From Cyanidioschyzon merolae (Eukaryota): 64,000 nt of DNA. Location of the stretch: the NCBI GenBank assembly GCA_000091205.1, contig AP006489.2; one strand, written 5' to 3'. The stretch's first letter is position 1. Each line of letters opens with the position of its first letter. The position numbers and the translations under genes are program-made. The notes under the pieces are model-generated. The model did not search any database and was not told the DNA's origin. It saw only the letters and a program-made list of their open reading frames with translations. Shown here in pieces: positions 15,407 to 64,000 of the stretch.

Positions 15407-16227
15407 GTCAGTTCACCTCTCGTCTAGTTCTTGCACAGTTGGCCAAAGGTGCGACGTGAGGTCTCGATCCTAGAACACAGGGTCAGACTAATATGAAGGC
15501 GCAGAAGAGCGCTAGTGGCGTATTGGATTCGTGTTTGCGTGAAGACTGCAGCGCGCCAGCAAGCGGTCAACGCGTGCGACTAGTTCCTGGTATCCAGCGT
15601 GACACAGAAGCGATCCTTAATCGAAAAGGTGCTCCTATTTCGCCGAACGTATGTCGTTCTTTAGGCTACCCAACGAGTACAACTTGACAGTGACGCTACG
15701 GCCGGGCTCTTTAGCGCACCTCAGGTTCTTCTTTTCGCGCACAAGCACTTGCCCTAGAAGCACTGTCTTCGACGATCAGAGGCGTGTCTATCCAGAATGC
15801 CTGAGTTACGCACCAGCACGAGCACGAGAAATACTTGCCAATACGGGTCCCTGTAGCCGGGTAAATCAAAGCTACCCGAAACGGTACGCTGAGCCAACCC
15901 AGTACCCACCGGAAGCCTTCACCACGAGACTGCCACTGTGCACGCTTCCAGTGGACAGGCGACGTCCCAAGCGAACCTGTGCGTAAGCCCCGTTCGTTAC
16001 AACGTACTGCAAGGTGCTGTCGCCGGACGCCACAACCAAAGCTCTTGCCGAGGGCTTACCTGCCTCGAAGCACCGCCCTGGTGGCCGCGGCTACCCAGTC
16101 AGCAGCGCGATGCTCCGCGGCGGGCGGCGTTTTCTGAGCAGCGCGATCGCCGCAGCGGCCCTCATCCCGAGGCGTCTGTGCGTCTACGGTGGCGACGTCG
16201 CTGACTGGCCCGCGTCTGATCCGTATG

Positions 16228-16310
16228 CGATTTTTTTCATTGACAAAACGTTTACTTAGGCCAGCGTTCTCCGATTATGCGCTTTTTTGTTTCTTTCTTT
16301 TTTTTTGTGT
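16228..16310 (-). repeat. 5'-truncated copy (3' A-rich tail only) of the SINE-like family (copy a)
   Basis: 'cgatttttttcattgacaaaacgtttacttaggccagcgttctccgattatgcgcttttttgtttc...' is identical in its first ~55 nt to the ends of the copies at 17335 and 60262. Confidence 0.7.
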
Positions 16311-17334
16311 AATAATCTGTATGAGATCGCCGCAGCGCATGTGGCTAGGTGTGATCTGCTGTGCGCCTTCGATGGCGTCTGTCCATGCGCATTGGTGTGC
16401 CTCAATCAAGGAGAACGCTGCCCTGCTTGCCCCATTCCTATTCATCGATCATTTTTCCAACTATTAAGGGGTATATCTTTTATATTCGAAGCGTGACTGT
16501 AAGAGCTTATGGATACATATGTAGTTCTGGGATTCGTGGTCGTTTTTCCGAGTGGATCCTTCGACACTTTGAGGCAGCAGTTCGATACATCATTAGAGTC
16601 AGGATTATTCGTGACGATCCTATAACATGGGCTCGTAAAATCACCGATATCATGATCGAATTCATATGTACGAGCTTCCAAGCTTCTTTATTGCCTACAT
16701 ATAGAATGCTCAGAGCACGCACTCCCCAGGTTATTGATCGTCCCCTGTGGAGGCAACTCGTGGGCGCACCAAAACGCACCGCTGGATTGACGGGATAAAA
16801 CAACGCGACATCGTCCTTAGGCGATGTGAAAACAAGCCTATGCCGACGTTTCACTAAAGTTGTCATGTATAAGGATCGATTTTGTTCGAAAGACTAGTTC
16901 TTCTGTCGTTTTTGCTTTCGATGAGACGGCATTCGATATCTGCTCGATACATCTCAGTGGATATGCTTCCAGAGGCTCCCGTCTCTTCTGTTTGAATTGG
17001 ATACGTTCTGGACTCGTACATTAGTCCCCCGCACGGTCGCTTCGAGTGGAGCCTGCGTCACCGTATTTCGCGAAGGACGCGTAGACAAATCGAAATGTCT
17101 CGATTTGTCCCCCAAACTCGCTTTTCGATTCGGTAAGTTTTGCCTCACGGAACACATCGCGTGTCACGGATCCTTTATCGAACAATAGATCATGCCCTTG
17201 CGCGTGCGCTAAGTGGATTAGTCGCCGAGTGCTTCGCCCAGAGAAAGCGCATGACCTGAAGGCACAGACTCTGCACGAAAGCAGAGTAAGGCGATCAGGT
17301 TCGCCTTCTGTACTCGTCGAAAGTATGCACTGAT

Positions 17335-17645
17335 CGATTTTTTTCATTGACAAAACGTTTACTTAGGCCAGCGCTCTCGAATTATACGCTTTTTTGTTTC
17401 TTTTTCTTTTCTTTTCCTACTTTTTTGTGTTTTTTCAGTGCGCGGTGAAGTATCCATCAAACACCCTACCTCCATGTTACATTACCTATACTTCGTCTCG
17501 GATATTCTGGTCGTTTCATACGTCCTATCGTGTGTGCCTAGAACCTGCCTTTCTGTATCCGCCTTTGCACCTGAACCGCTCGAGCAGATAGTTCGTAGAG
17601 CTAGAACAGCATTTCTATACCATAGAGGGCGTCGGCTCGAGGGGT
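17335..17645 (-). repeat. SINE-like retroposon copy (copy b); element sense on minus strand, A-rich tail at 17335
   Basis: Aligns along its length with the copy at 60262-60548. It ends 'agagggcgtcggctcgaggg' (17624-17643). It lies in the divergent GH36/GT4 intergenic region. Confidence 0.7.
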
Positions 17646-18507
17646 GCTTCACCCGACATAGAATCGGGTCTCGTCGTCGGTTTGTGCTCGGACAGTCCGC
17701 GAATGTAGGCTTGGCTTCGCTGCACGACACGCTGGAGAAACTTGCTGTTAGTATGAATCCTGGGAGCCGCCTCTCTCCTTCGTGATCATGCATGGAATGC
17801 GTCGTTGGTTGGCAACGCGGGTTTGTGCTTGACACCCACCAGTGGGTAGGCGCAGAAAGCGCACTGGGCCCGTGTGCGCATCCGATTCGCTGGACCTTAT
17901 GCCTAGAAGGTAGATGCACCGATCGATGAGACGAGCGTTCACGCGCCGTACGTCATTGCTCGACGGAGACGTGTAGCTGGAGTTGTGTGAACACCCCAGC
18001 ACGCCCAGGCGCCTCCGCTTCGAAAGGCTTACCGATCCTGTATACAAAAAATGAAAACAGCAAGTAAAGCATCCATTGGAACATGCATCTTCGCATAAAA
18101 TGTGTAGGAATCAGACACCATTGACGAAAGTCGTACTCGATCGCTCCCATCAACATTCCTCGACTGCTATTAATGGAGCTGGAGGGAACGAAGAGACGAC
18201 CGATTTCTAAGCCCGATATAAGACAGACGGATTCTAATCTGTTCATAAAAAAGCCAGCATATGCTCGTGTTTATCATAGTGGCACGAATTCAAAACATGA
18301 GCGCATTCGTGCGTTCCCCCTGAATAGAGACGCTCCATCGATATCTGACTAATGCGCATCGCGCGCGTTCCGCATTGCCAGGGCGCAGCTGAATGCACCA
18401 CGCTGAAAATCTGTGGTGGATACGAGAGGATACCGGGTAGGCGCGTCTGAATTCGGCATTTGTAGTTGTTGTGTGTTGCTGACTCTCGTCCAACGACTTC
18501 GTGCACC

Positions 18508-28244: not shown

Positions 28245-30494
28245 AGAGCAGTATGATCTAGTTTTGCGCTCGTGGGTATACCCTGGACATCGTGTAAGCG
28301 TTGCTCATCAGAAGAAGCGCGGGATATGCTGTTGGATTGTGCGGGATACCTGATTGTCGACATCGAGCGCGCTCTAGAAAGGTACGCTATGACCGGTCGT
28401 GTAACGCTCCTTCTCGCAATTGGCCAGGGGAGCTCCGGCGTATATCGCGTCGCTCATCCCAAATATATGTGACTGTTCACGATGATAGCCCATCATGGGG
28501 AACTTTTTATCCACCGCTCGGCCGTTCACTTGGAATCGAGCGTAAGATGCTGCTGTGCGTGATCTATTTGTGAGAAAGTTCCCGTGCATGTCCTAGTAAC
28601 TCTACAGCTGCTGGTGGTGCTTCAGGAACATGTTGGGTTAGGATTTGGCCGAACGAACGTTCGGAGAGGACGAAAATCGATAGCTTTATGGAAGAACTTT
28701 AAAGGATGAGAAGCGCATTTGAAACGATCGCGCGTTTCCGCCTTCTTGGTACAGCGATATGCTCACCTTGAGAAGAGATATCCACGGGTAGCTACGGCCA
28801 CATGCAAACAAGGGCGGCAACTCGACCAGTTTGCGCACGAGATCCTGGGCGCATGCCTTCACCGCATAAACTCATGCTTCACTTTCTAACACGCTCCTCT
28901 GACTTTTTTCCATGGTCTAAATCCACGATCCTAACCAGATTTCCTCTGGAGGCGCTCACGCCACAACGGAAAACGAAAGAGACCTCAGTGATTCCATTCT
29001 ATGGCTGTTCCATGAAATGACGCACTTGCCCACGATCGGAGACTCTGTCGAGGGAAACGCGAATTATACAAGGAGGGCACTCAAGGCCACGGTTTTCCAC
29101 GGCTGGCGTACACAATCCGGGACCCAAAAAGTGGAATGGCTGAGGTGGCTATGGGCAGTAGCCGCAAGCTCCCGAGCACCTGTAGATTCTTTTAGTCCTT
29201 CGACTCAACTTTGTTTCACCATTGATATATTGTATAGCAGGAGATCGAAATCTTTACGCAATATACCGTTTAGACAGCAGACGGATCGCATTTAGGATAT
29301 ATATGTTCCTTTACGAACAATGCAAGGAGGACTGCATTCCTTTTTCAGCTCAGTCATACCACAGTACTCCGATGGCCCAGGGACTCCGAAAGAAAGAATT
29401 ATGTGCGCTGCGCTCTAAAAAACTGCTACTGTCCGAGCGTGCTCGTAGACAATGGTAAAAAAATTGCCCGATAATCACCCCACGAAAAGCAAAAGTGGCG
29501 GTAGATGCACTAATAAGCGTCTTTGTTTCTCAACTGCCAGTTCATGTGATCCTGAAACACTGGGATACAGTCGCAATAAAAAGTCGAAGATCGCGCTCGG
29601 CAATTTTGCATAGACATCGCAACCACAGCTTTCCTGGTATTCAGCGATCGGTTTGAAGTAGAGGGACGTCGGTTTGGTTTTCAGTCGATTGAACTTGCTT
29701 CGAACGAAACAATCAGAGCGCCCTTGGGTATTCGAGGAGACAGGCACCCATTGTATGTACGATCGAACTCGAAGAGAAGAACAACATCATCCGTTCGAGC
29801 TGCAGTGGATTCATTCGGCAGCCTCAGTTTCGCTCATAGAGACGGCTCATAAAACAACGCCCAGTACTCGCTCGAATCATTGAAGACTTTTCCCTGACGT
29901 TTGGCGATGTGCTTCTATTGGACATCATGGCGCCCCATCATTCCCCTTGCGTTCGAGCTTTTTGCAGATTGTATTGAGGTAGGGCTGCTTTTCATTCTTC
30001 CATACGCTCCATGGTTTATCCCCATCGAAGGAGCGTTTTCTGTGGCAAAAAGTAATGATTGCTTCGCTGGGTGATTCCTTGAACCTTTGATCACGATGAC
30101 ACCGGAACACATCTCGTTTTTCTTCCACAAAAGCTTCACCCTTGGAAACGTCTTCATATAAGGGCTTGAAGGGAAGTTTTCATTTTCAAAAAGTAAAAAA
30201 TCCAAGGGAGAGCTGTGTACATGGAACTGGAGGATCCTGGAGGACCGGTGTCGCCGGTTGCACGAAAAACCCGCAAAGCAGAGCCAAGCAAACAGGAACA
30301 GGCGAAGACAAAGAAGGAAAGGCCGGAGGCCCAACGCCAGATGCTGCAAGAAAGCCGACTGTACGACGAGATGGTGGTGAAAGCCTGTCTTCCTAAGCAT
30401 ATCAAGGATCCCTAGAGGGAAAAGTTGCGAGAGGGTATCAGCAAAACGTGTCGACTCGTACTCCAAGAGTACCGTCAAGGCGTCGTCAGGACTG

Positions 30495-32501
30495 ATGCAT
30501 TTGGCGAGGGAGATGTACGAAGACGTGGCGCACATGGAAAAGGTCGAGGTTCCGGAAGAGGTTTTCGACAAGACGTTTATTCGTCACCTGATGCTTGGTA
30601 CAGAGGAAACGCGGAGGGAAACTGAGCTACTGCATGCCCTCCACGAAAACTTCGTGGAATTCCGCTTCGAGGGTACCCGATGCAGGGGTGACCGGGATAT
30701 TTACACATATGGGGCGATGAAGTACATCACGAACCTGAAGAACCATTTGACAGTGAACCTCGAACGTTACATGATACGCGCCTTGTTTGCACTCTACCCG
30801 GGCATCTGTCCCAAAGGAATATCAGCGATTATCAATGGCATCACGCACGATCGCAAGCTTGAAGATGACATCGAATTTGTCGACAAGAAGGCGTCAAACC
30901 AGAGCACGAATAAGGTGTCCGTCATCCGTGCGGATTTACAAGAGCACCGTGCAGTCATGGAGCTGCCGAATCCAACAGACAAGATATCAGAGTTGAGAAA
31001 AGATAAGGGAAGATACTATCGCCTCGTCCTGCTGTATTTCGTGGTTTTGGACCGAGAACTCGAACGCAAGGCACAGGTGAAGCTGAGTGGGGGAAAATGA
31101 AGAGTGGGAGAGACGGAAGGCTTTCCATATGGGGAAGCGCTTCTACGTCGTTCTAATGTGCACCATCAAGTCACATTTTGTGACTATCGACTCCGCAGTC
31201 ATTCATGGCATCATGAAGGAGATCAGTCCGGAGTTCGATGTTAGCAGGGAGGAATTCTCCGGTGAAAACCGGGAGACGTTCTGGAAGAACATCTTCGATT
31301 TCAAACGTCTGAGGGTGAGCAAACAAAAGGTACTCACTGGGATGATCGAAACCGATGGAGTAGTCATGTGTGTACACTATCGGCGGTTGAAGAAAGATCG
31401 TCCAATCCCCGCCTCGGCGAACCATGAAGATGAGAAGGAGGCGGATCCTGCGAAGCAGGAAGCGGAGGATAACGACTTTGTTGTTGACGTGACGAAGCAT
31501 GAAGATGAGATGGAAGCGGGTCGTGCGACGCAGGAGGTGGAGGATAACGACTCTGTCGTTGGCGCAACGAAGCATGAAGAAAACAAAGAGGAGGATCCTA
31601 CGACACAGAAAGTGCAGGATAACGACTTTGTCGTTGGCACGGCGAAGGATGAAGATGAGAAGGAGGCGGGTCCTGCGACGCAGAGAGTGCATGCGAACGA
31701 CTTTGTCGTTGGCGCGGACCCCGGAAACACGAATATCATCACCATCCCTGCTCCCAAGCGTGCGGAATATGGTACTGATGGCAACTTATGTCAGAAAGAC
31801 ATGCGACTTTCGAGGTTCTCGAGAGCGAGATACTCTCGAGAATCCAGTATAATGAAAGCAAGGAAGAAAATCGAGACGTGGAATGCTAGACTGAAGGAGT
31901 ACCTGGAAGTTTTGAGCGAGGTGACGAGCCGAGGAGCGGACTTTAAAGCTTTTCGGAAATTTATGAAAGTTCGCGTTGCTCATTGAGATGCACTGTGTGA
32001 GGAGTATACAAAGCCGGGTGGGCTCTTCTGCGAATGAACTTGTATTGCCGGAAGCAGCGCGCATTCGCGAACTTTTTCAATGAGTTGAGCGCCCTGAAAG
32101 AGGATGAAAGTCAGAGGCTTGTAATAGCGTACGGAGCAGGGCGCTGGATGACCCAAAAAGGTACTACACCAGCTCCAACGACAAGAACGTACAAAGAGTG
32201 TGCACGGCGTTTTGTCACAGTACCTGTAGATGAGTTCCGAATATCGTATACACACCATGAACTGGGACGTACACTTCAAAGGGTCGAGATGGAAAAGTGC
32301 CAGGGGAGTCCTGAAGACATAGCAAAGTACGGACCGCTGCCGGAGGTGCAAATGGAGAGGAGGACAAAAGTGCGAGGGCTACTCGCATTCGTAAGTACAA
32401 CCAACGACGGCAAGAAACGTATGGAGTTTGTGAACCGAGACTTTAACGCCGGCATCAATATCAGGAGATGCGCGGTGATGGAGAAAAGGCCTCCACAGTA
32501 G
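30495..32501 (+). CDS. Fanzor/TnpB-like RuvC endonuclease, about 650 aa, split across three frames (introns or frameshifts); possibly a pseudogene
   Basis: ORF A is 30495-31100, ORF B is 31087-31986 and ORF C is 32034-32501. RuvC-I is '[17 protein letters not shown]' (about 31705-31740). A TnpB-type pre-zinc-finger segment reads '[22 protein letters not shown]' (compare TnpB 'LeYKa..G..vv.Vdp.yTSq.C'). RuvC-III is '[13 protein letters not shown]' (about 32436-32470; compare 'D.NAA.NI'). The A/B junction falls at a G5A4 homopolymer and needs a 1-nt frame change. The B/C junction needs a length change congruent to 2 mod 3. Confidence 0.65.
31420..31727 (+). repeat. Four in-frame tandem copies of a 75-nt (25-aa) unit ending in the RuvC-I motif
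   Basis: '[25 protein letters not shown] / [25 protein letters not shown] / [25 protein letters not shown] / [28 protein letters not shown]'. The nucleotide units are about 80% identical. Confidence 0.85.
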
Positions 32502-32760
32502 ACAAGAGAGAATTTTAAAGGACAACTGCTCAAAGTGGAACTATATGAGAAACAATTGGAACCAGTCGTAAGTGGCCGATCCAAGAAGACGGGGAGGCGT
32601 CTGCACGTCAGTTCGAGACTGCTTGTCTAGGGCGGGTTTATCGCCACCACTGTGCACCGCTGGCGGCGGTCGACTTTTGGAAGGTATTCGCTAGAGGTGC
32701 TGTTTATAGGGATCAAGTCTCTGAAGCGAGATGCTTTCACGACCTCTGCCGCTCCAGACG
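32400..32760 (+). ncRNA. Predicted position of the Fanzor omega-RNA (overlapping the 3' end of the nuclease ORF and extending downstream); not directly recognisable
   Basis: By analogy with TnpB/Fanzor loci, where the guide RNA scaffold overlaps the 3' end of the nuclease ORF. Local inverted repeats are present, for example 'tagacaag' at 32502 paired with 'cttgtcta' at about 32625. No conserved motif was verified. Confidence 0.2.
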
Positions 32761-49974: not shown

Positions 49975-51036
49975 ATGCGAGTCGTAAGTTTTCCACGTTC
50001 GAGTGGCTCTGCCTTGCGGAAACGCACGGAAGCTTTCGCTGGCTTGCTGAGCTACCCATGGTGCCAGCACTCAGCTCTGGAACTATACAGTCGGCAAAAA
50101 GTTTTGAACACCAGGCGATTGAGCTTCCTCGACTCTGGGATGTGCTTATTTGCTGGCGTCCGGACGTTTCGTTCCAATTTCTTAGCGTCTGAGTTGCGCT
50201 TGGCGCGAGCAACACACTTAAATTTGGATTTATGGAGGCGCAACTCTAGTTTACTGCGAAAAACGCACGTTCAATACCGACAAGCTAGCGGTCGCGGTCG
50301 GGGGCCAAGCACGGCCGACTCGTCTGATGTGCGGAAACGGAACTTGAATTTTCTTGCGTGGAGCCTCTCTGCCGCGATATGTACAGTTGGACTCTCATAC
50401 GCATCCGTGCCTTTGTATAGAATGTTTTGTCAAGTTACTGGATACGGAGGCACTGTACAGACGGAAACTGAAGAGTATGAGAATCGATGGAGCGCGCTCC
50501 AATCATCACCAAGCGCTGAAGGGGATACTCGTTCCGAATCCTCAGCGCCGGAGCCGAGCGCGAGTAGTCGCACAAAATCCTCACATCGCCGGGAACGAAT
50601 GCGTATTCGACAAGACGCAAGACCTATTACGATCCGCTTCAATGCGGACGTGAATGCTGCCATGCCGATCACTTTCGTGCCACGTCAGTCGATAGTGCAC
50701 GTTGTACCCGGGGAGGCTGCGCTAGCCTTTTATACCGCACAAAATCAGGCTAATGAAGATGTTGTCGGAATCGCCACCTACAACGTAGTGCCCGCGAAGG
50801 CGGGAGTCTACTTCAACAAGATTCAGTGCTTCTGCTTCGAGGAACAGCGTTTTAAGGCAGGCGAAAAAATCGATATGCCTGTCCTTTTTTTCATTGACCG
50901 CGAATTCAGTGATGATCCTCGCATGGTAGACGTAGATACGATTATCCTCTCGTACACATTCTTCCGAGCGCAGGATGTTTCTCCTGAATTTCTGGCGGAA
51001 CAACAGCGTCAAGCAATCGGGCTCGCAACGAGTTGA
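49975..51036 (+). CDS. COX11: Cytochrome c oxidase copper chaperone COX11 (CtaG family)
   Basis: The TM segment reads 'LSAAICTVGLSYASVPLYRMFCQVTGYGGT'. The copper-binding 'YFNKIQCFCFEEQ' carries the CFCF motif, followed by 'ILSYTFF'. The N-terminal extension of about 120 aa is consistent with a mitochondrial presequence plus linker. Confidence 0.9.
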   Translation: MRVVSFPRSSGSALRKRTEAFAGLLSYPWCQHSALELYSRQKVLNTRRLSFLDSGMCLFAGVRTFRSNFLASELRLARATHLNLDLWRRNSSLLRKTHVQYRQASGRGRGPSTADSSDVRKRNLNFLAWSLSAAICTVGLSYASVPLYRMFCQVTGYGGTVQTETEEYENRWSALQSSPSAEGDTRSESSAPEPSASSRTKSSHRRERMRIRQDARPITIRFNADVNAAMPITFVPRQSIVHVVPGEAALAFYTAQNQANEDVVGIATYNVVPAKAGVYFNKIQCFCFEEQRFKAGEKIDMPVLFFIDREFSDDPRMVDVDTIILSYTFFRAQDVSPEFLAEQQRQAIGLATS

Positions 51037-52327: not shown

Positions 52328-53716
52328 ATGTTTCTGGCAGAGGCCGTGTTTCGGATACGACAACAGTCAAAAACGATCTCGTACTCAGCACGTCACGAAA
52401 ACAGTTGCGTACAAGGCTTGAAGCTAACTTCAGAGAAACCTGAGGCACGGTCAACTGTGGCGGCACTCTCAAGAAGGGTTTGGAGCCTCCGCGACGAGGG
52501 CGCATACTCAATTCTCGAGCGAGCAAACCATTTAGACAGGCATGCAACAAGCACCGCAGACAAGATTATCCACTTGGAAATAGGTCAGCCTTCAGCTGCG
52601 CCTCCGCAACACGTCGTTGACGCACTTATCAACGCTGTCCAAAGTGGAGAAACGAAGTACACAGACCCGGCTGGCACGCTGAAGCTTCGCGAAGCCATAT
52701 GTGCCTACATTGAAAGAACGCACCAGCTAAAACACGGCACCCTGAGTCCTAATATGGTCGTCGTTGGCCCAGGAGCGAAACCGGGAATAGCTCTCTCGTG
52801 TCTGGCGCTTTTGGAACCTGGTGACGAGGTTCTCGTTCCAGACCCGGGGTTTCCAGCGTATCGAGCACTGATTGAGGTATGTGGAGCTCGCGCTGTAACC
52901 TATACTGTGTCATCAGAGTTTGGATTGCTCGATCCAGCGGAAATCTCTGCTAAAATCACGCAGAAAACGAAGCTTTTGATCCTGAACTCTCCGAGCAATC
53001 CGACCGGTGGTGTTTTATCCCCAAAGACTTTAAAGGAACTGGAACATGTTCTAAAGAGTTGCGGCAGCGATATATGGATTTTATCTGATGAGATATATGC
53101 GCGATGGTTCTACGAAGACAGACAGATCGATGATGAGGCTGCAGGACACGTATCAATCTTTTGTGACGATGAACTTCGATCTCGAACTATCCTCATCGAT
53201 GGCCTTTCCAAGTCATTCTCAATGACCGGGTTTCGCATCGGGTACGCAGTCGCTCCGGCGTTCCTTGCGGAGCGGCTCCGGCTCCTTGCAGTGCATATCT
53301 ATGGATGCGTCGCGAACTTCACCCAAAGCGCGGCTACGACGGCTTTTGTTGAACAGGAAAAGAGTGATGCATATATTCGGAGTCTGATCGAAATGTATCG
53401 AAGGAACAGAGATCTAACTTACGAAACGCTCTCCATCATGAAGGGGTGCTATCTGGCGAAACCTCAGGGTGCTTTCTACGCATGGCTAGATGTATCCGCG
53501 TACGGGATACCGACACCAGATTTGGCGCGGTACTTGTTGGAACACGGCAGAGTAGCTGTTCTCCCGGGAACGGATTTCGGATCTCAGGGAGAGGGATTTT
53601 TGCGGATCAGTTTTGTATGCGATCAGGCCGAGCTACGCGAAGGCCTTGGAAGGTTGGATATTGCCCTGCGAAAAATCGCTCCATCAGGAATACAGCAGAA
53701 ACTCAAACAAAATTAG
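52328..53716 (+). CDS. PLP-dependent class-I aminotransferase (aspartate/aromatic aminotransferase-like)
   Basis: 'LILNSPSNPTGGVLS' and 'DGLSKSFSMTGFRIGYAVAP' (the PLP lysine lies in the SKSF context) are fold-type I signatures. The bacterial-AspB-like core reads 'IHLEIGQPSAAPPQHVVDALINAVQSGETKYTDPAGTLKLREAI'. ATG at 52328; the track ORF begins at a TTG at 52262. The N-terminus is presequence-like. Confidence 0.85.
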   Translation: MFLAEAVFRIRQQSKTISYSARHENSCVQGLKLTSEKPEARSTVAALSRRVWSLRDEGAYSILERANHLDRHATSTADKIIHLEIGQPSAAPPQHVVDALINAVQSGETKYTDPAGTLKLREAICAYIERTHQLKHGTLSPNMVVVGPGAKPGIALSCLALLEPGDEVLVPDPGFPAYRALIEVCGARAVTYTVSSEFGLLDPAEISAKITQKTKLLILNSPSNPTGGVLSPKTLKELEHVLKSCGSDIWILSDEIYARWFYEDRQIDDEAAGHVSIFCDDELRSRTILIDGLSKSFSMTGFRIGYAVAPAFLAERLRLLAVHIYGCVANFTQSAATTAFVEQEKSDAYIRSLIEMYRRNRDLTYETLSIMKGCYLAKPQGAFYAWLDVSAYGIPTPDLARYLLEHGRVAVLPGTDFGSQGEGFLRISFVCDQAELREGLGRLDIALRKIAPSGIQQKLKQN

Positions 53717-53869
53717 ATTTGCAGCAAGAAAATGATATTGGGATCTGCTCGACCTTTCGATTAAGTCGCTTTCTGCAACAGAACGACTTCAGCTAGTGAG
53801 GAACGTGCCAAGCTCGTGTATGCGCCAGATGGCACGACACGGTAACGGTTTAGGAAGCCAGCGGTTCCG

Positions 53870-54799
53870 TTAAAGTGTAAGTTTTTGGAAGAATTCGAGC
53901 AAAAATTCGTAGCTGATTAATGCCAAAGCCGTGTTTGGCACGGTGCGCAACATGCTCGGGCCTAGTCCTCGATAGAAGCTGGATATGCCCTCTCTGTAAA
54001 TCATATTCCGAACTAGATGAAACAGACGGATTCGAGGACCCTCAAGTCCGCTTTGCACTCGAGTTCGCAGGACCTCCAATGGAAAACACACAAGCTGGCT
54101 CAATATCGCACTCGTCAGAGAAGCGATGCCCATGTAATAAACTCGCTGTGCCCCTTCACAATCTATCAGACGTCTTAGGTTTTCATACAGAGCGAACTGA
54201 ACGGAAGCAGCGGGGAATCCAGCCATTGATACCAAGGTACCTCGGTAAAGGCCGCCGAGGCCACCTTCCCCGACAATCTCCTGAAGCAGGTTCCGCATGG
54301 TTGGTCGATGGGCCTCCTTAGTTAGTAAATGTATACATTTTGTTTCATCAAGCATCCTGGTAATTGCCCGAGTCCGCATCAGCCACAAAGGATTCGTCAG
54401 CACTGAGGTTAGAGACCATGCTATCCCAGCTGAAGTTGCACACTTCAATGTAAAAAATGTTGTATCATCCGTCTCCGCCGGGTCCATCCAGGCCTTGACG
54501 CTGGAATATATCGTGAAAAAGGAACCTAAAGCGGGTACCAAAGCAAGCGTTGATGGCACGAGGCCTACAAATAAACCGCGAGGCCCTTCGTCATTTAGTA
54601 TCGTGCGCACTGAACTATACAAGCCAGCGTAACGCGTTCGACGATGTGCTTCACGGCGTTCAGCCTGCATTCTCGTCTTTATGACTTCCAGCGGCTGCGT
54701 TAAAGAGGCAGCAATTGCACCGGAGAGGGCACCTGCCAGAGTGTGCAGAGGAGGGGCAGGCGTGGCCTCACTTCGCTCAGCAACAGTGTCAGCTTCCAT
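53870..54799 (-). CDS. Mitochondrial carrier family (SLC25) protein
   Basis: Three repeats each carry the P-x-[DE]-x-x-[KR] signature: 'PLEVIKTRMQ', 'PLWLMRTRAIT' and 'PLEVLRTRVQ'. 309 aa with six predicted TM helices. Confidence 0.85.
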   Translation of the reverse strand: MEADTVAERSEATPAPPLHTLAGALSGAIAASLTQPLEVIKTRMQAERREAHRRTRYAGLYSSVRTILNDEGPRGLFVGLVPSTLALVPALGSFFTIYSSVKAWMDPAETDDTTFFTLKCATSAGIAWSLTSVLTNPLWLMRTRAITRMLDETKCIHLLTKEAHRPTMRNLLQEIVGEGGLGGLYRGTLVSMAGFPAASVQFALYENLRRLIDCEGAQRVYYMGIASLTSAILSQLVCFPLEVLRTRVQSGLEGPRIRLFHLVRNMIYREGISSFYRGLGPSMLRTVPNTALALISYEFLLEFFQKLTL

Positions 54800-56833
54800 T
54801 CAAAAGGCGAGCTCGAAACTCATGACCAACTACCTCCGCACTACGGTGAGGATGCTCTTCCGATGCAAATCAGCAGCAGTTTCTTATTCGAAGAGTTTTA
54901 GTCTAGGCTGCAGATTTGAACGGAACAGCCAGTGACCTGTTAGCGCTCTCAGCAGCACCCTGTATTCAACGCTACAACGCCGCTATGATTGCGCGATGCA
55001 AAGAACGAACCAAAGCACTTCAATGTGATCGTGCTCATGAAAAAATGCTTTGGCAGGGCGCCCTGCATCGGAACAGAAATCATTCTTTCTCTTTAATATA
55101 TAAAAGCGAGGCATGAAGAGGGCAACTACCAAGGTTTCACATGACGACATTGATGCTTTGTAACATTGAATACATTATAGAAAAACTTCTGCGCTTTTCA
55201 CACCGTTTGACTGATGATAAAAACATAATACGAGATATCTTTCACCGAAGAAGCCTTTGCAGATAGAAAACTCGCAGATAAACAAAATCGGAAGCCGGGT
55301 AACGATACAGCAAGCAGTAATATTCACTGTGCAATAACCGAGATTTTAAAATCACTAGTCCTTCGACACAGATCCCGACGGACTAGGCGTGACGGACTCA
55401 CACATCTCTGAATTTGAGTGGAAATTCGATCTGAGCGACAATTCTACATCAGCGACAATGCCGTCAGGACTACCAAAACCCCTCGTAGGCAAACTCAACC
55501 GCAAGTTTGAATTCGACAAGGTCCGCGCAATTTACCACAGCATGCAAGCCATTAAGGAAAGCTGGGCATTTACAAAGCAGGTCGCTTGTGATTTAATGAT
55601 ATAGGATTAAAACAGACCATCAAAAAACTTTTGTTACGAAAGCGGTAGCCCACTGAAGAAGTGAGTTACATCAGGGTGCATCCCGCTCCTCAGCTCGCGC
55701 GCTCTCGACGCAGAACACACTCAGAAATATCACAAAAAATAGAACACGATTACCCTTCACCAACGACCCAGGAAAACCATTCCTAGTGTATCCATATGCC
55801 TCTCCAGCTTTCCCGGACTCTGAACCATGCCATGCAAGTGCCCTGCTCCAGGCGGGATTTCAGCGCCGCCCCTCTTGGCCACTGAATTGGGTCTATCGCA
55901 AGTCCTCGCCATTTCAGCACGATGCCCACAACGGGCACTGCAATACTCCCACCAAAGCTCGCTCGACACAAGCTCGCTGTACGCTCCAGGACCAGCAAAC
56001 ATTTCGGGTTGTTGATTGGCCCGTCCGGCTCGGCGGAGAACGTGCTTCCGTGCACTGTTGCTGGCGATATCACACTATGACGAGCTTCTCACTTTCGATT
56101 GCCTCGCAATGCGACGTTCGGTCAGCTTGCCGCCCAAGATCTCGTGGCATCCGACTCTGTTTCAATCTCGCCTTCTCCAGATGCTGCAGCCTACGCCTTC
56201 GCACGTGATGGATCTATGCCGTCCAAAGCGCATCGATGTAAATCGTACTAATCGGTTCCTGCACGCGTTGTACGCTCCCGTCGAAGGAGAGGGAGAGCAG
56301 CCCGCACGCGCCCCAGCACCTCCAGCGCCATAGACTAACACAAAACCACGCGACTTGTCGGCCATTTACTTTTCTAACTCACTGAACTAGTATATTCTCA
56401 CGATTCCTGCATATACAAATCGGTAGATGTTGGCGACCCCAGCGCTGTTTCAAGTACCCGGCCAATGTTCGTTCGTATACGACATTTGGACACTCAGGCA
56501 CTCTCTGAATCAAGCGCACGGGGGATCCGTTTCTGGTCAATCCGGCGCGCAGAACGTCGGGATGGGCCCTGAAGCCGTCATTCCGCGTGCCGGTACGCCT
56601 CGTTGAGTCGACCATGCCCGGCTCGCGATAATGCCGAGCCCCGGAGAAGCTGAGTTGCTCCATCTGATTGCCGCACAGCTGTTTGCATGCGTCCTTTCAA
56701 TTTAGGGGCACGGCGGAAGCTACGGCGTTCTTCATACAGGGATCCACGCCCGCCACAAAGACTGTCCCGTAAGCTACCATGCACGATTGAGAACGAGTCT
56801 TGTTGCTCGGCTCAGCTCAGGGTTTCACAACGT

Positions 56834-58985
56834 GCATGCAGCCTGGTATCCCGTAGGTCTCCGTCGCCCCTGTAAAATTCTTTCCATTTCCTCCCCGTAA
56901 CGAAGCAACCCTGAGGGAGCTCCGGCAATGCTCCATACGAAGCTGATCGAAAGCTTCGTAATTACCGGAAGAGAGGAGGCATAGCTCGCCGCGGAAACTA
57001 TCTAGTATGAAACGAATATGCCTACGGTAACATGGCAGGCCTTGATATGAAATATGGGAGTACTTCGAACGGACGCTTGAGGAGTCTTAGGCGCTCGCAC
57101 ACAGTGAGGGAGTTTGCGTTGCTATGGAGGGCTTCCTCGAAGAAAGCGCAGTAGCTCGTATGCAAGGAAGCTAGGCATCACATTTCAACCATCCCCTCTA
57201 TGGGTCGTGCGTCGGTCCGACCCCGCGAGCAATACGATGAGCCTGCGCCCCCACAGTCGGCTCTCGCGATCGTTGCGTTTTCCCTTCTGCGCTTGCTACG
57301 AACTCCATCTCGTCCGCCCAGAGCAGCTCGCCTTTTAACTATAAAGATACCGCTAGAAACTCATCCATCAGTCCCCTCTTTCCTGGGTCAGTGAATTGAG
57401 GGTACATCGCCCACAGGGTGCGGTTCATGAAGCGCTCGAGAGTGGCCGCATATTTTCTTCGGTTTTTGACGATAGTTTGATACTTTTTGGCACAGCGCGG
57501 TAGCTTTCTTTCGTTGCCCACATACAGCGACGACGCGTCAAAGCATTCTGCGATTCATGTGTGTAGCCGCTCGTCCTACAATCAGGCCGTGCTGCATATT
57601 GCGTTCAGAGCATCAGTTGCGCGTCGTCGCGCGAAGTCTTCATCGAGGAACTCCAGAAGAACGTGGACACCATGGAGTCCTATGTCGGAACTTCCGCAGA
57701 CCGTTGCTTGACCAGGCGGCTCAAGACGAGAGAGGCTAGGCGCGCATTATTCGGGTAAGGAGCTTCTCGAGCCTTCACGACGTCCCGGATTTCGCGTTTT
57801 GGAAGAGCCTCCCCGTTGAAGTGTGTTTGTCGGGAGACCTTGGCAACGGTTTCAGACTGATATTTCCGCTCCGACAGCTTTCCTTCCTGTACCACTTCGT
57901 CCCGTTTTCTGAAGGCTCTTCCGCTTCCTTGTCTGGTGGTCCCTCGCCCTTCTCCTTGACTTGGCGCGGCGGCAGAACTGTTGCCGCTATATTCCATATC
58001 CAGGTTTTTCGTCGGGATTCAGACAAACTAGGTGGATTCTAGCACTGCCATTCGCCCGCTCGATGGATCTATGTATCTAATTCGCTCCGAGTACACTTTC
58101 GTCAGTGCTTCCGTGGCAAGCACAAGCATGAGCCGAGGCGCACCTCCTCGCTCGCTCACACGAACCGCAAGAGATGCAACAAAGCAGTTCATGGCGAAGA
58201 AAACAAAGAGGGACTTGTCGAACAACGATCTCATGGGCGCGAGCCACTTCTCTATTGATCCGTGAGCGTAAGAATGGAATTTGGCACCGGAGAAGAAACA
58301 GTCGACTGGATTAAACCATGGAGAATGGGCTAGTGCGAAGAGCAGCTCCACGAAAATCACAGATGCGTACCCCTTGACCACCTTTGGGTTATGGAAATCG
58401 AGATCGTCTCAGAACAGGACAGAAAAATGTGGAAAGAAGGCACCACAAGTGCTTCGACGAAGAAAGAGCTTTTGAGTGATCCAGTCCATTTGGGGATATG
58501 TGGGCGATCGCACGACTGCATTTCCGCATGGGTTGGTGTTGTCGCCATTCTCGCTTGTCTCATTACTAGGAAGATGGTCCTCGCTGGGGGCGCGCTTTTT
58601 CGCTCGTCTATCCGAGTCTCTTCATAACCAACCGTATCAACGGCGCGTAAATTTCCCGTCCTGTGGCTTCATTGAAAGTTCTGCTCTGAACACATATGCA
58701 GCGGAAGGAATTGAGGAGAAAGTCGAGCAGATTAATTTCTATATCATCTGACTCGGGTGCACGGCGTTCAGGATAGGGGCTACGAGAAGGGTGGTTCATC
58801 CACCAGCTGACGGCAGGGCGACTTGCAGTATACATGTAGAGACATTTTGGCCAGCTTCCAGTACCACCACAAAGGCTATCCGCGAATTTTTTGCTCAGTT
58901 TAAGGGATACATCTTTGTGTTGAATTTCTGCGAAAAAATCAAAAAAATACAAAATGACGCGCTGGTGTAGGGGTGCAGGATATCA
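56834..58985. repeat. Inverted-repeat arm 1 (at least 2.15 kb; the partner runs off the window end)
   Basis: The reverse complement of 61848-64000 matches 56834-58985 essentially exactly. ORF-track pairs such as 58032-58265(+) and 62568-62801(-) give identical peptides. No RT, integrase or DDE transposase motifs were seen in the arm ORFs. Confidence 0.9.
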
Positions 58986-59334
58986 GTCCCTATTGAACAA
59001 TATGGTTTGCATCGGAATTGAACACGTTCATCAGAAAATCTGCGCGCTGCGCGCGGAAATATCGGCGCCGTTTTGGAATTTTTTGTCTGCATACCACTTT
59101 ATCACTCCATTCTGCTGTCGAGGAATTCTGGTTCGTCAGCTTGGCAGACTTTTCCCTTTATGCTTAGATCTGAAGCCGTTTTGCAAATTTTTGCTATTTT
59201 TAATTAATTTCGTTTCTTCTGTTTTGTGAAAGAGGGATAAAGGAGTGATTCTTCTGAACAAAGAGCTTGGGTAAACTATTTGGGACTGACGCAGGTTCGA
59301 AAAGTAGAAGTACGATCTCATCTGCGCGGCTCTG

Positions 59335-59555
59335 GGCACCCGAGTCAGATGATATAGAAATTAATCTGCTCGACTTTCTCCTCAATTCCTTCCGCTGCAT
59401 ATGTGTTCGGAGCAGAACTTTCAATGAAGCCACAGGACGGGAAATTTACGCGCCGTTGATACGGATGGTTATGAAGAGACTCGGATAGACGATCGAAAAA
59501 GCGCGCCCTCAGCGAGGACCATCTTCCTAGTACTGAGACAAGCGAGAACGATCAC
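59335..59555. repeat. About 220-bp diverged partial copy (about 95% identical) of the inner IR segment, in arm-2 orientation
   Basis: 'cacccgagtcagatgatatagaaattaatctgctcgactttctcctcaattcc...' appears at 59338 and at 62078, with a handful of substitutions between them. Confidence 0.85.
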
Positions 59556-59879
59556 AAAATCAGCCTTAGTGTTCTGAAAATACAGATACTAACCATCAAA
59601 TAGAAATTCGATATCAATTTTCTTCCTACTTTACGGTAACCATTGAAAGGGGAAAGCATTTGCTTATTCTCAAAAGTTCGGTTTCCAGGCTGAAAGTCGC
59701 ACGAGCCTTCCGAGCCTGCCAAGCTTTCGCTCCACATGCCTCTTTATAGCCTGGTGCTCTAGCAAGGCTTGAACAGCTCGTCCGCTGTGCGGGATAGTCT
59801 GGGACTTCGCGTGCTCAGGCTGTGTCTGGGACTCGCTCTCGTCGCGATGCTACTCTGACACATTGCTTCGCGCTTTTGC

Positions 59880-60200
59880 TTGCAGTGCGCCTGTCTGCGC
59901 GGATTGCAGGCTCTCAGCAATATAATGAATCCCGATCCCGAGTCGGCGAAAAACGCAGCGAGCTTACGTCTTCGGTGGTACGGCAAAGCCGTCCTGTCTG
60001 CGTGCTGCATTCGCACCTGCGGGATAGGCGCTAATGCTGGTGCCCACGATAGACTCGGCGCAAGATAGAACGTTCGAAACGACCAGTATGTCCGAGGGGA
60101 AGGATGGGTAATAGAACTTGAAGATAAGATTACGCATGACTGACGCTTTCCCGAATGCCAATATCGACCCCGCAGTCTGGGATCCATGGTCTACACAAAC
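59880..60200 (+). repeat. Older, diverged SINE-like family copy (copy d), element sense on plus strand
   Basis: '...cgtcctgtctgcgtgctgcattcgcacctgcgggataggcgctaatgctggtg...cgaaacgaccagtatgtccgag...' aligns at about 70-75% to the reverse complement of copy c. It lies tail-to-tail with copy c. Confidence 0.6.
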
Positions 60201-60261
60201 GCTCTCTCTGACAAAAATGCACATTTTCCGCGCTCACGGGTCGCGTGCGATACTCTTTCGA

Positions 60262-60548
60262 ATTTTTTTCATTGACAAAACGTTTACTTAGGCCAGCGTT
60301 CTCCGATTATGCGCATTTTTCTTTTCTTACTTTTTGTGTCTTTTTCAGTGCGCGGTGAAGTATCCATCAAACGCCCTACCTCCAAGATACATTACCTATG
60401 CTTCATCTCGGATATTCTGGTCGTTTCGTACGCCCTATCGTGTGCCGAGCGTGCCGAAAGCGACAGCAGTAGCGCCTATAGCGCCAGTGCGGTCGCTGCA
60501 CGGAGACAGAACGGCGTTGCCGTACCGCAGAGGGCGTCGGCTCGAGGG
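60262..60548 (-). mobile_element. SINE-like non-autonomous retroposon (copy c) with a 12-bp target-site duplication
   Basis: The element is flanked by the direct repeat 'atactctttcga' (60250-60261 and 60549-60560). In element sense (minus strand) it starts 'CCCTCGAGCCGACGCCCTCT' and ends in the A-rich tail '...AAAAAGACACAAAAAGTAAGAAAAGAAAAATG...GTCAATGAAAAAAAT'. This is the same family as copies a, b, d and e. It sits about 50 bp upstream of the 60599 ORF. Confidence 0.7.
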
Positions 60549-60598
60549 ATACTCTTTCGATGTGACACGCTTTCGACGCGGCTACAGCGCTGCCGCAA

Positions 60599-61660
60599 GT
60601 GATGTCGCTGACCTTGTTTCCAGAGGGTATACACCCACGGATTCCTGTGGAACCTCAGGACCTTGTATGCTTGCAGTGTCCTGAAGCTAACCTTGGCCGG
60701 TCGCTGCTTTATTCTCTTGCTGAACGGGCAGCCCTTTTCAGCTCGAACGGGTTGACGTACCACGTGTTCCTCATTGACGGCGACTGTCTCAGCGGCGTTG
60801 TCGGACAAGGCGAGTGTGCCAGAGAGGTACTATGGAAGACTTTGCTAGAAGCCAGAACAGAGGCGACTGTGGAGGAGCCTTTGGCCATAGATCGTGTTTC
60901 TATTGCAGTGTGCCACTCGTTTAAGGAAAGCCTTGCTTGTCTTCGAGGCATTCTGCATACTGTCGAGCAGTTGTCACGGGAATTTCCCGAAAACACGCGA
61001 ACGGTTCCTGAACGAAAGCTTTCACTTCGGACTACTGTATCGCCATTTCCGCATCATGTAAAAGCGAGTCAGAACTTCTCGCTTTTGTCGCTTCCGCATG
61101 AACGGCAAATTTCTCAGAACTTGGAAAGCTTTAATGAACCAAGCTCAACCTCTTTCAAAAGCTTTTCAGAGAGCGTTGCACTTACCGACAATTGCATAGT
61201 GAAAACACCGAGCACGCTGCCAGTATCGAATGTTCCTAGCCATGAATACGTGTTGATTCTTGTTGATGGTATCGGGAATTCTTCGGGTATGCTTGGAAGC
61301 GAATATTACAACACCTGCATCATTGATCTCAGAGAAGAGCTTCGTGATATTTTACGTCAGCTGCTCGCCAGTGCGTACGTTTCAATTGTTTTTCGCGATT
61401 CTCTTATGGGTACGAAAACTGAGAGCATTGCACGCGAGATTCCAATCGAGACAAGCGGGGCTGATGGAACGATAGAAAAAATGCTGCGCAATCTCCTGAC
61501 GAAATCAGTGTTGGTCGAACATTCTTCGATGCCGAACGAAACGTATAGATTATGCTTTCGACAATTCCATCCGTCTGGATCACTCCAGCTTGAGTGGGAA
61601 AGTTTTTTAGGCGAGCCTCTCCATCCCGCTTTTAAATGGCTTCGAAGCAAAGCAGCGTAA
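60599..61660 (+). CDS. Orphan 353-aa hypothetical protein in the core between the inverted repeats
   Basis: Clean ATG-initiated ORF (MMSLTLFPEG...) with no domain I can recognise. Representative segments: 'TYHVFLIDGDCLSGVVGQGECAR' and 'HEYVLILVDGIGNSSGMLGSEYYNTCIIDL'. Confidence 0.45.
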   Translation: MMSLTLFPEGIHPRIPVEPQDLVCLQCPEANLGRSLLYSLAERAALFSSNGLTYHVFLIDGDCLSGVVGQGECAREVLWKTLLEARTEATVEEPLAIDRVSIAVCHSFKESLACLRGILHTVEQLSREFPENTRTVPERKLSLRTTVSPFPHHVKASQNFSLLSLPHERQISQNLESFNEPSSTSFKSFSESVALTDNCIVKTPSTLPVSNVPSHEYVLILVDGIGNSSGMLGSEYYNTCIIDLREELRDILRQLLASAYVSIVFRDSLMGTKTESIAREIPIETSGADGTIEKMLRNLLTKSVLVEHSSMPNETYRLCFRQFHPSGSLQLEWESFLGEPLHPAFKWLRSKAA

Positions 61661-61847
61661 GGAGCTGCGATTCCATGTGTGCGTGCTGATGCATGAATGA
61701 ATAGAGTTCCCTTTTTCCGATTTCTTCGGATATCACCTTCCGGATAGTGATGAAGCAATTTTTCGGCGAAAATGTTCGCTCATTTATAGCGCTGGTCTCA
61801 ACTGGATTAGTACCTACGGCTTGTCTGACTTTTCTTACGAAGTGCAT

Positions 61848-64000
61848 TCACATCCTGCACCCCTACACCAGCGCGTCATTTTGTATTTTTTTGATTTTTT
61901 CGCAGAAATTCAACACAAAGATGTATCCCTTAAACTGAGCAAAAAATTCGCGGATAGCCTTTGTGGTGGTACTGGAAGCTGGCCAAAATGTCTCTACATG
62001 TATACTGCAAGTCGCCCTGCCGTCAGCTGGTGGATGAACCACCCTTCTCGTAGCCCCTATCCTGAACGCCGTGCACCCGAGTCAGATGATATAGAAATTA
62101 ATCTGCTCGACTTTCTCCTCAATTCCTTCCGCTGCATATGTGTTCAGAGCAGAACTTTCAATGAAGCCACAGGACGGGAAATTTACGCGCCGTTGATACG
62201 GTTGGTTATGAAGAGACTCGGATAGACGAGCGAAAAAGCGCGCCCCCAGCGAGGACCATCTTCCTAGTAATGAGACAAGCGAGAATGGCGACAACACCAA
62301 CCCATGCGGAAATGCAGTCGTGCGATCGCCCACATATCCCCAAATGGACTGGATCACTCAAAAGCTCTTTCTTCGTCGAAGCACTTGTGGTGCCTTCTTT
62401 CCACATTTTTCTGTCCTGTTCTGAGACGATCTCGATTTCCATAACCCAAAGGTGGTCAAGGGGTACGCATCTGTGATTTTCGTGGAGCTGCTCTTCGCAC
62501 TAGCCCATTCTCCATGGTTTAATCCAGTCGACTGTTTCTTCTCCGGTGCCAAATTCCATTCTTACGCTCACGGATCAATAGAGAAGTGGCTCGCGCCCAT
62601 GAGATCGTTGTTCGACAAGTCCCTCTTTGTTTTCTTCGCCATGAACTGCTTTGTTGCATCTCTTGCGGTTCGTGTGAGCGAGCGAGGAGGTGCGCCTCGG
62701 CTCATGCTTGTGCTTGCCACGGAAGCACTGACGAAAGTGTACTCGGAGCGAATTAGATACATAGATCCATCGAGCGGGCGAATGGCAGTGCTAGAATCCA
62801 CCTAGTTTGTCTGAATCCCGACGAAAAACCTGGATATGGAATATAGCGGCAACAGTTCTGCCGCCGCGCCAAGTCAAGGAGAAGGGCGAGGGACCACCAG
62901 ACAAGGAAGCGGAAGAGCCTTCAGAAAACGGGACGAAGTGGTACAGGAAGGAAAGCTGTCGGAGCGGAAATATCAGTCTGAAACCGTTGCCAAGGTCTCC
63001 CGACAAACACACTTCAACGGGGAGGCTCTTCCAAAACGCGAAATCCGGGACGTCGTGAAGGCTCGAGAAGCTCCTTACCCGAATAATGCGCGCCTAGCCT
63101 CTCTCGTCTTGAGCCGCCTGGTCAAGCAACGGTCTGCGGAAGTTCCGACATAGGACTCCATGGTGTCCACGTTCTTCTGGAGTTCCTCGATGAAGACTTC
63201 GCGCGACGACGCGCAACTGATGCTCTGAACGCAATATGCAGCACGGCCTGATTGTAGGACGAGCGGCTACACACATGAATCGCAGAATGCTTTGACGCGT
63301 CGTCGCTGTATGTGGGCAACGAAAGAAAGCTACCGCGCTGTGCCAAAAAGTATCAAACTATCGTCAAAAACCGAAGAAAATATGCGGCCACTCTCGAGCG
63401 CTTCATGAACCGCACCCTGTGGGCGATGTACCCTCAATTCACTGACCCAGGAAAGAGGGGACTGATGGATGAGTTTCTAGCGGTATCTTTATAGTTAAAA
63501 GGCGAGCTGCTCTGGGCGGACGAGATGGAGTTCGTAGCAAGCGCAGAAGGGAAAACGCAACGATCGCGAGAGCCGACTGTGGGGGCGCAGGCTCATCGTA
63601 TTGCTCGCGGGGTCGGACCGACGCACGACCCATAGAGGGGATGGTTGAAATGTGATGCCTAGCTTCCTTGCATACGAGCTACTGCGCTTTCTTCGAGGAA
63701 GCCCTCCATAGCAACGCAAACTCCCTCACTGTGTGCGAGCGCCTAAGACTCCTCAAGCGTCCGTTCGAAGTACTCCCATATTTCATATCAAGGCCTGCCA
63801 TGTTACCGTAGGCATATTCGTTTCATACTAGATAGTTTCCGCGGCGAGCTATGCCTCCTCTCTTCCGGTAATTACGAAGCTTTCGATCAGCTTCGTATGG
63901 AGCATTGCCGGAGCTCCCTCAGGGTTGCTTCGTTACGGGGAGGAAATGGAAAGAATTTTACAGGGGCGACGGAGACCTACGGGATACCAGGCTGCATGCA
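61848..64000. repeat. Inverted-repeat arm 2 (truncated by the window end)
   Basis: See arm 1; the inner junction is at about 61848-61850. Confidence 0.9.

Follow-up and report, generated by a model that had tools for sequence, protein, structure and literature searches.

A palindrome on chromosome 7 of Cyanidioschyzon merolae

How does a resident gene come to lie between two inverted repeats of several kilobases that do not differ at a single visible nucleotide? The question is raised by the end of a 64,000-nucleotide stretch of DNA from Cyanidioschyzon merolae 10D (contig AP006489.2; the whole stretch is referred to here as the window), which exact protein look-ups place on chromosome 7 (584,452 bp). 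There, two arms enclose a unique core that contains the gene CMG070C (Table 1). The feature is a palindromic pair on either side of a resident gene, formed by a dead and deeply diverged element that had not been described and that belongs to the Fanzor1 class (eukaryotic, TnpB-like RNA-guided nucleases); its probable explanation is a palindrome of Fanzor and DDE transposon debris around that gene, with arms homogenised by gene conversion.

Within the window, positions 56833-58981 and 61852-64000 are 100% complementary over 2149 nt by both repeat search and blastn; a perfect inverted repeat of 2.1 kb lies far outside what chance would produce. A previous reading of the DNA from its letters alone (the sequence-only reading) had reported this exact inverted repeat correctly, but its inner limits, 58985 and 61848, overshoot by 4 nt, where ATCA and TCAC are unpaired. 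Its suggestion that the arms may be longer was borne out when many hot-spring metagenome contigs, ~99.8% identical to the locus, were aligned to the window: nine of these (L007, L009, L013, L022-L026 and L031) stretch the arm homology to ~55722 and set the outer limit of arm 1, giving full arms of ~3.26 kb. Arm 2 runs ~1.1 kb past the window end, and 56833-58981 is the only portion of arm 1 that can be paired within the window. The whole unit, both arms and core, measures 9.4 kb. No tandem sub-repeats were detected in the arms by a tandem-repeat scan.

Beyond the ~1.1 kb of arm 2 that lie outside the window, a further 356 nt are common to both arms in one wild haplotype. In the contig concerned, L027, these nucleotides (2415-2770, with the junction at window position ~55719) are on the arm 1 side, whereas in 10D they are found only beyond arm 2. 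Thus, the outer boundary of the palindrome varies among strains, either by a deletion in the 10D type or by an expansion of the repeat.

Table 1. Coordinates of the palindrome, of its component parts and of other features in the window
Feature	Position	Strand	Basis or remarks
Arm 1, full length (~3.26 kb)	55722-58981	-	Repeat search and blastn; outer limit from metagenome contigs
Unique core (2870 nt, GC 0.485)	58982-61851		Spanned colinearly by contigs L031 and L013
Arm 2, visible part	61852-64000	+	Repeat search and blastn; arm cut by window end
Fanzor1 (TnpB-like) pseudogene, arm 1	55948-57954	-	tblastn with CMe-1 and frameshift-aware alignment
Fanzor1 pseudogene, arm 2	from 62879, past window end	+	Mirror of arm 1
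Probable IS630/Tc1-mariner-type DDE remnant, arm 2	62239-62553	+	Weak profile matches and alignments
Probable DDE remnant, arm 1	58280-58594	-	Mirror of arm 2
CMG070C (CYME_CMG070C, BAM79594), resident lineage-specific gene, 352 aa	60602-61660	+	Exact protein look-up
Partial third copy of arm segment 62073-62302	59336-59565	+	230 nt at 95% (213 nt at 97.7%)
TE-N2_CMe/CMe-1A 5'-region copy	59582-60191	-	Consensus 22-631, 74%, blastn E=1e-103
Second TE-N2_CMe/CMe-1A fragment	60231-60553	+	60375-60550 matches consensus 84-259, 81%
CMG071C (BAM79593), annotated 91-aa ORF straddling the arm 1/core junction	58954-59229	+	Annotation
CMe-1A-type Fanzor1 copy and DDE remnant	29840-32627	+	CMe-1 matches at 30224-32627, 59-85% protein identity
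Further TE-N2_CMe/CMe-1A 5' fragments, intergenic	11376-11523, 16199-16310, 17337-17668, 17833-17912		
Mitochondrial carrier (BAM79592)	53870-54799	-	Exact protein look-up
Cox11 (BAM79589)	49975-51036		Exact protein look-up

Transposon remnants in the arms

The arms were compared with the published consensus of the C. merolae element CMe-1A and the protein of CMe-1, both taken from the supplements of PMC3627910. With the CMe-1 protein as tblastn query, the match in arm 1 covered 57566-56130 (E=2.7e-13; 526 aa with 22% identity), and that in arm 2 began at 63267; a frameshift-aware alignment covers CMe-1 residues 18-699 of 734, at 62879-64885 in arm-2 coordinates, with a score of 370. In addition, tblastx of the arm against 29.9-32.2 kb of the window, where a CMe-1A-type copy is located, gave four colinear matches across 2.1 kb (sum E=1.65e-6). 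Among the Fanzor1 motifs, FVAGVDPC, YGAG...PSPST and IN..C survive. FVAGVDPC aligns with FVVGADPG of CMe-1, so that the context of the first D is retained; further pairings in the frameshift-aware alignment include one opposite LRFSRARYYRESG and that of LVYGAG...SPSPSTGAYNAC with VAYGAG.... DEFRTS has become DALWTA in the arm and NRDFNAA is unrecognisable, and the arm copy does not contain the intact D...[TS][TS]xx[C4 zinc finger]...RD motif (PMC3627910). The broken motif, together with at least 12 frameshifts and several stops, makes this copy a pseudogene.

Curated profiles are silent about this gene, and its identification rests on the published CMe-1 sequence. No TnpB-type Pfam family was found in the six frames of the arm, and NCBIfam matched the transposase-like region of the arm only; searches of PDB sequences gave chance matches only. 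Even the better preserved open reading frames (ORFs) at 30.5-32.5 kb had no match in Pfam, NCBIfam or the PDB sequence search. At the nucleotide level, blastn found no match of the arm elsewhere in the window and none between the arm and CMe-1A, for which the query was the first 905 of 3169 nt. On these comparisons the arm appears to represent a second, deeply diverged Fanzor1 lineage in C. merolae, undescribed before and known only at this locus.

Inward of the Fanzor1 pseudogene, the arms carry what is probably a remnant of an IS630/Tc1-mariner-type DDE transposase, to judge from a series of weak sequence matches centred on the motif DDLDFH...LAHSPWFNPVD. A six-frame scan of the arm matched Pfam DDE_3 (E=0.04-0.18, 12-14 bits against a cut-off of 28.6) and the NCBIfam IS630 family NF033545 (E=0.008-0.013, 15-16 bits against a cut-off of 100), and tblastn against plasmids found two Deinococcus IS630 transposases (E=0.7 and 5). 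Frameshift-tolerant alignments scored 71 and 65, compared with ~39+-4.4 for shuffled sequences (top shuffle 61), with references that were picked after the fact. With regard to the catalytic D...D(34)E/D region and its LPPYSPxxNPIE-type motif, DDLDFH-(n)-LAHSPWFNPVD shows the same spacing as LDNLSAHH-(n)-LPPYSPDFNPIE, with which it can be aligned; database-level E values are only 0.003-0.7.

For a custom hidden Markov model (HMM), the plasmid matches to a single Deinococcus IS630 transposase were ranked and 11 IS630 transposases were taken at even intervals from the list. Run on all six-frame fragments of the window, the model scored best at 29898-30071 (E=0.0035), followed by both arms (E=0.013) and by 16830-17021 (E=0.029). 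The arm remnant aligns with 29840-30125 with a score of 83 (null 49+-5.5, at most 65), and this paralogous remnant, which precedes the CMe-1A-type Fanzor1 copy, retains LLLD..HH and LPYAPWFIPIE. It has no match to the first 905 nt of the CMe-1A consensus. An N-terminal helix-turn-helix part of the IS630 type was not detected across either inner boundary, and scans of metagenome and viral collections for paralogues of the DDE-like ORF of the arm returned this locus or nothing. These findings supersede the sequence-only reading's statement that the arm ORFs show no reverse transcriptase, integrase or DDE motifs, since a degenerate RuvC-type Fanzor1 pseudogene and a probable DDE remnant are present.

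The third match of the custom HMM, 16830-17021 (plus strand; FDETAF...GYASRGSRL), resembles the first IS630 catalytic motif weakly, is located ~450 nt upstream of a TE-N2_CMe fragment and may be another decayed transposase.

Several repeat families provide a context for these remnants. A 3.2-kb interspersed element with 253 copies and an ORF related to WSV486 of white spot syndrome virus (WSSV) was reported from C. merolae by Nozaki 2007 (PMC1955436). Bao & Jurka 2013 (PMC3627910) subsequently described Fanzor1 (TnpB-like) elements; their list has one from C. merolae and another, SWv-1, from the genome of WSSV. CMe-1A has a 3169-bp consensus, to which each of its ~150 copies shows ~80% identity; TE-N2_CMe consists of the 635 bp of the CMe-1A 5' end and has ~70 copies; neither has terminal inverted repeats (TIRs), the superfamily of both is listed as unknown, and the target site duplications (TSDs) of CMe-1A are given as undetermined (PMC3627910). 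Since the WSSV genome carries the Fanzor1 element SWv-1, CMe-1A and TE-N2_CMe would correspond to the 253-copy element.

The arms resemble CMe-1A in having a colinear, near full-length Fanzor1 homologue, a length of ~3.3 kb, no TIRs and no recognisable TSDs. They differ in that the identity of their Fanzor1 protein to CMe-1 is only ~22-27%, compared with 59-85% for the CMe-1A-type copy at 30224-32627; in that a DDE-like remnant replaces the TE-N2-like 5' region; and in that just two copies, identical to one another, have been seen. Neither the ~80% nucleotide identity nor the TE-N2-like 5' 635 bp of the CMe-1A family proper was found in the arms when the first 905 nt were compared. The arms are also similar to the Mariner and Fanzor1 elements PUl-1 (3620 bp) and PGv-1, in which a transposase-like region is followed by Fanzor1 on one strand over a similar length. 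However, PUl-1 and PGv-1 have TIRs of 24-29 bp and TA TSDs (PMC3627910), none of which were found at the arms, and the PUl-1 transposase is unalignable to the arm, whereas bacterial IS630 transposases align weakly. A DDE-like remnant preceding two very divergent Fanzor1 genes might conceivably place the unclassified Fanzor elements of C. merolae in the IS630/Tc1-mariner superfamily.

The core gene and the origin of the arms

The ORF of the core had been described as an orphan of 353 aa (60599-61660). An ORF is indeed present, but it properly begins with the ATG at 60602, and the resulting protein of 352 aa is CMG070C, which has syntenic orthologues. Homologue searches found relatives of CMG070C in cyanidiophytes only. 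A Pfam search found no domain in it or in the arm ORFs, and an AlphaFold prediction made without an alignment was unusable (predicted local distance difference test score 33). The corresponding loci of Cyanidiococcus yangmingshanensis and of a second cyanidiophyte assembly were located via orthologues of the neighbouring carrier gene. In both, the order is carrier, a gene of 347 or 355 aa, ANTH, ABC1 and DUF760; full-length comparison of the middle gene with CMG070C gave identities of 29% and 27% (E=1e-25 and 3e-27), and it keeps the same relative orientation, with spacers of 1.7-2.6 kb. Conservation between species is limited to the three genes, the arms have no counterpart in the relatives, and no inverted repeat of at least 30 nt is present at the syntenic locus in either of the two assemblies. 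Because CMG070C is syntenic in relatives that do not have the repeat, the arms are additions specific to their lineage, that of C. merolae, in which they appear to have been placed to either side of an ancestral gene; they do not represent the termini of a foldback element.

The following history would account for the locus. The ancestral order, still seen in Cyanidiococcus, would have been mitochondrial carrier, CMG070C and ANTH, with spacers of ~1.8 kb. In the C. merolae lineage, one degenerate transposon copy of ~3.3-3.6 kb would have come to lie on each side of CMG070C, the two in inverted orientation and each with the probable DDE remnant on its inner side followed by the Fanzor1 pseudogene on its outer side, while fragments of TE-N2_CMe/CMe-1A and a 230-nt piece of the arm would have occupied the stretch upstream of that gene. 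The arms would be kept identical by intrachromosomal gene conversion, as in other eukaryotic palindromes, and recombination between perfect inverted repeats of 3.3 kb would be expected to invert the core occasionally. The pair could have arisen through one insertion and an inverted segmental duplication, or through two insertions that were later homogenised; in both cases the arm boundaries would mark the limits of homology.

It is conceivable, though doubtful, that the palindrome is instead the product of a non-autonomous element that was mobilised in trans and inserted twice, independently and in opposite orientation, around CMG070C, a pair resembling a composite transposon whose identity would come from one master copy or from later homogenisation. 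Tc1/mariner elements hop locally, which favours such a pair, as do the L027 haplotype, in which both arms end at the same outer nucleotide and the flanks beyond are unrelated, and the length of the arm with the additional 356 nt (~3.62 kb), which resembles that of PUl-1. However, neither a TA nor any other TSD is present at either copy, nor are TIRs: the TSDs that were to be sought at the outer arm boundaries did not appear when these were reached with metagenome contigs. The frameshifts counted above argue against an insertion of this kind, as does the inner boundary, which, if the remnant is measured against IS630 transposases, appears to cut the N-terminal transposase-like part. Metagenome look-ups and scans brought up no further near-identical copy, and the differences between 10D and wild contigs that are shared by both arms would still need conversion. 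The notion that the arm is an ordinary repeat that happens to occur twice here is right in that the arms belong to the known Fanzor class, but their lineage was seen here only and class membership does not explain their identity.

Identity of the arms and gene conversion

The probable explanation given above, transposon debris homogenised by gene conversion, draws on how the arms vary. There are 0 differences over 2149 nt between the arms of 10D, whereas 10D differs from wild contigs by ~0.15%, in arms and flanks alike. At two pairs of sites (58096/62737 and 58030/62803), the two arms of 10D have one allele in common and the ~23 wild contigs all show the other; a third pair (57071/63762) follows the same pattern with one exception among the wild contigs. 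Within a genome the arms are thus more alike than between strains, which supports a palindrome with concerted evolution, and changes that arose after the duplication and are found on both arms of a lineage have the same implication. The partial third copy in the core also exchanges alleles with the arms among strains (59409, 59465, 59493 and 59549 compared with their arm counterparts). From these allele patterns we infer that the arms are kept identical by arm-to-arm gene conversion. Ongoing conversion had been one of several options listed in the sequence-only reading, and it gains support from the 10D-specific alleles, which the two arms share and which are absent from all wild contigs.

The decay of the arms bears on the same point. 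Over the part visible in the window, frameshifts and stops coincide between the arms. The decay of an element that was already dead is thus shared, and perfect identity is not due to recent autonomous transposition; nor did the copies come from an autonomous element that was then active. The arm lineage itself is old, considering its ~22% protein identity to CMe-1, its heavy decay and the absence of any nucleotide-level resemblance to the window's other copy.

A very young inverted duplication, identical for lack of time and without any gene conversion, is an unlikely explanation. The 100% identity over 2149 nt would be expected of it, but the repeat is present with the same boundaries in every wild population sampled, at ~0.15% from 10D, and two to three sites are altered on both arms relative to the wild contigs. 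Because diverged wild populations share the repeat, the duplication predates the split between 10D and these populations, and very recent duplication, offered earlier as an explanation, does not suffice alone.

Several observations weigh against the explanation by homogenised Fanzor and DDE debris. All scores of the DDE remnant lie below curated cut-offs, and the Fanzor-associated mariner transposase of the Pythium element PUl-1 gave no alignment with the arm. In a test for stop-codon depletion the arm ORFs were no longer than those of shuffled sequences, and the search for TIRs and TSDs at the arms produced a sole candidate, a 13/17 match that is at chance level and has no flanking TA. With respect to conversion, the wild arms come from collapsed short-read assemblies, in which the wild allele is assigned to both arms from the absence of the 10D allele in the contigs, and for 10D the arm identity is that of the reference assembly. 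Finally, a single converted tract of ~1 kb would be enough to account for the shared differences as a whole, which leaves the word "ongoing" unproven.

Comparison with other inverted-repeat structures

In the palindromes of primate sex chromosomes and the inverted repeats of plastids, identity is kept by arm-to-arm gene conversion. The C. merolae locus is like these in its kilobase-scale inverted arms, its unique spacer, an identity between arms that exceeds that between strains, and a boundary that varies (by 356 nt). It is unlike them in that its arms consist of dead transposon sequence alone, without amplified functional genes, and in that isomers with an inverted spacer were not observed, the core being in the reference orientation in the informative contigs (L007, L013 and L022).

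Some yeasts (S. pombe, Komagataella phaffii and Candida tropicalis) have inverted-repeat centromeres, and a low-GC core of ~3 kb between perfect inverted repeats is reminiscent of these. In the quoted description, C. merolae centromeres are 2-3 kb long, with a mean GC of 48.4%, one per chromosome and no recognised sequence pattern; few stretches of comparable size in the window have a GC as low as that of the core, which equals that mean. From composition and layout the core and arms, with transposon debris around them, might be taken for the centromere of chromosome 7, which would make the C. merolae centromere one of the inverted-repeat type like those of some yeasts. This is quite improbable, as 52.8-55.8 kb is equally low in GC and, unlike yeast centromeres, the core holds a conserved protein gene.

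A foldback-type transposon with very long TIRs, carrying the 353-aa ORF as cargo, would account for the general layout, in which long inverted arms enclose a core with an ORF, and was among the options of the sequence-only reading. It is rejected, the chance that it is correct being very slight: the ORF is CMG070C, a resident gene with the same neighbours in two relatives without the repeat; TSDs are absent at the outer ends; metagenome look-ups found a single genomic context for the unit; the arms are without tandem sub-repeats; and the nuclease and transposase remnants sit in the arms, reading outward.

Occurrence of the palindrome in wild populations

The junctions of the palindrome were looked up in the metagenome contigs. 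The junction from left flank to arm 1 is reproduced in L001, L002 and L020, that from the core to arm 1 in L031 (colinear with 61851 to 55721) and L032, and the passage from the core through arm 2 to the right flank, with its genes for ENTH/ANTH, ABC1 and DUF760 proteins, in L007 and L013. Contigs consisting of the arm only, 3238-3310 nt long, were found in five samples (L022-L026); ~3.3 kb is the length expected when an assembler collapses a two-copy repeat. Altogether, the four junctions were recovered in contigs of more than 15 independent metagenome assemblies. An artefact of the 10D reference assembly, which the perfect identity of the arms and the cut at the window end had made worth considering, can in practice be dismissed, because both inner junctions, both outer flanks and arm-only contigs of collapsed length are reproduced independently.

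Two contigs depart from the locus. L012 (4552-6272, junction at window position 56346) continues into a PB1/UBA-like repeat-rich protein, possibly by rearrangement or as a chimera. L011 (1-4455, junction at window position 60262) continues into tRNA-synt_2d and zf-ANAPC11 exactly at the start of a TE-N2_CMe fragment and is probably chimeric. Some Joint Genome Institute gene calls on eukaryotic contigs such as L031 read TGA as sense, creating the false proteins P0008 and P0044 (269 and 240 aa); neither can be translated under the standard code, and a homologue search with P0008 was empty. Such calls are a pitfall for homology comparisons.

Other features of the core and the window

The partial third copy of the arm, which had been noted as ~220 bp, ~95% identical, in arm-2 orientation and inverted to arm 1, was confirmed, at 230 nt and 95%. 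It is located 575 nt from arm 1, and the arm segment that it duplicates is upstream of the DDE-like remnant and overlaps its start. The core also contains small inverted copies (59959-60126 and 60377-60544, 74%), previously taken for two SINE-like (short interspersed nuclear element) copies placed tail-to-tail. Two inverted copies do exist, but they are 5' fragments of TE-N2_CMe/CMe-1A and are head-to-head, with their 5' ends facing each other; no Pol III-type SINE head related to tRNA, 7SL or 5S was found, the tRNA scan being negative and Rfam giving only a chance match to a small nucleolar RNA (E=0.85). Several TE-N2_CMe/CMe-1A copies in the window begin with GATTTTTTTCATTGACAAAACG.

The Fanzor1 copy at 30224-32627 has a few frameshifts and a stop, and comprises ORFs at 30495-31100, 31087-31986 and 32034-32501; with the DDE remnant before it, it may represent a subfamily that hints at the superfamily of the C. 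merolae Fanzor elements.

No annotated protein gene is located inside the arms, and CMG071C is the sole annotated ORF that touches them. It starts 28 nt within arm 1 and extends into the core; its protein cluster consists of a single 10D sequence in the protein collection, and it is probably an annotation artefact rather than a true gene. The two lowest-GC stretches of the window (52800-55800 and 58700-61900, ~0.48 compared with 0.533 overall) flank arm 1.

Implications

The palindrome is real but fairly ordinary, and not a new kind of mobile element; current understanding is not changed in any major way. C. merolae is, however, a genetic model with what has been called the "simplest" eukaryotic genome, in which a palindrome of 9.4 kb constitutes a recombination-prone site, relevant to the engineering of chromosome 7 and to the mapping of short reads there. 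The locus is a clean and small case of concerted evolution of an inverted repeat that can be traced in natural populations, and a Fanzor1 lineage linked to a transposase-like remnant may help to classify the main repeat family of this alga, the superfamily of which is listed as unknown.

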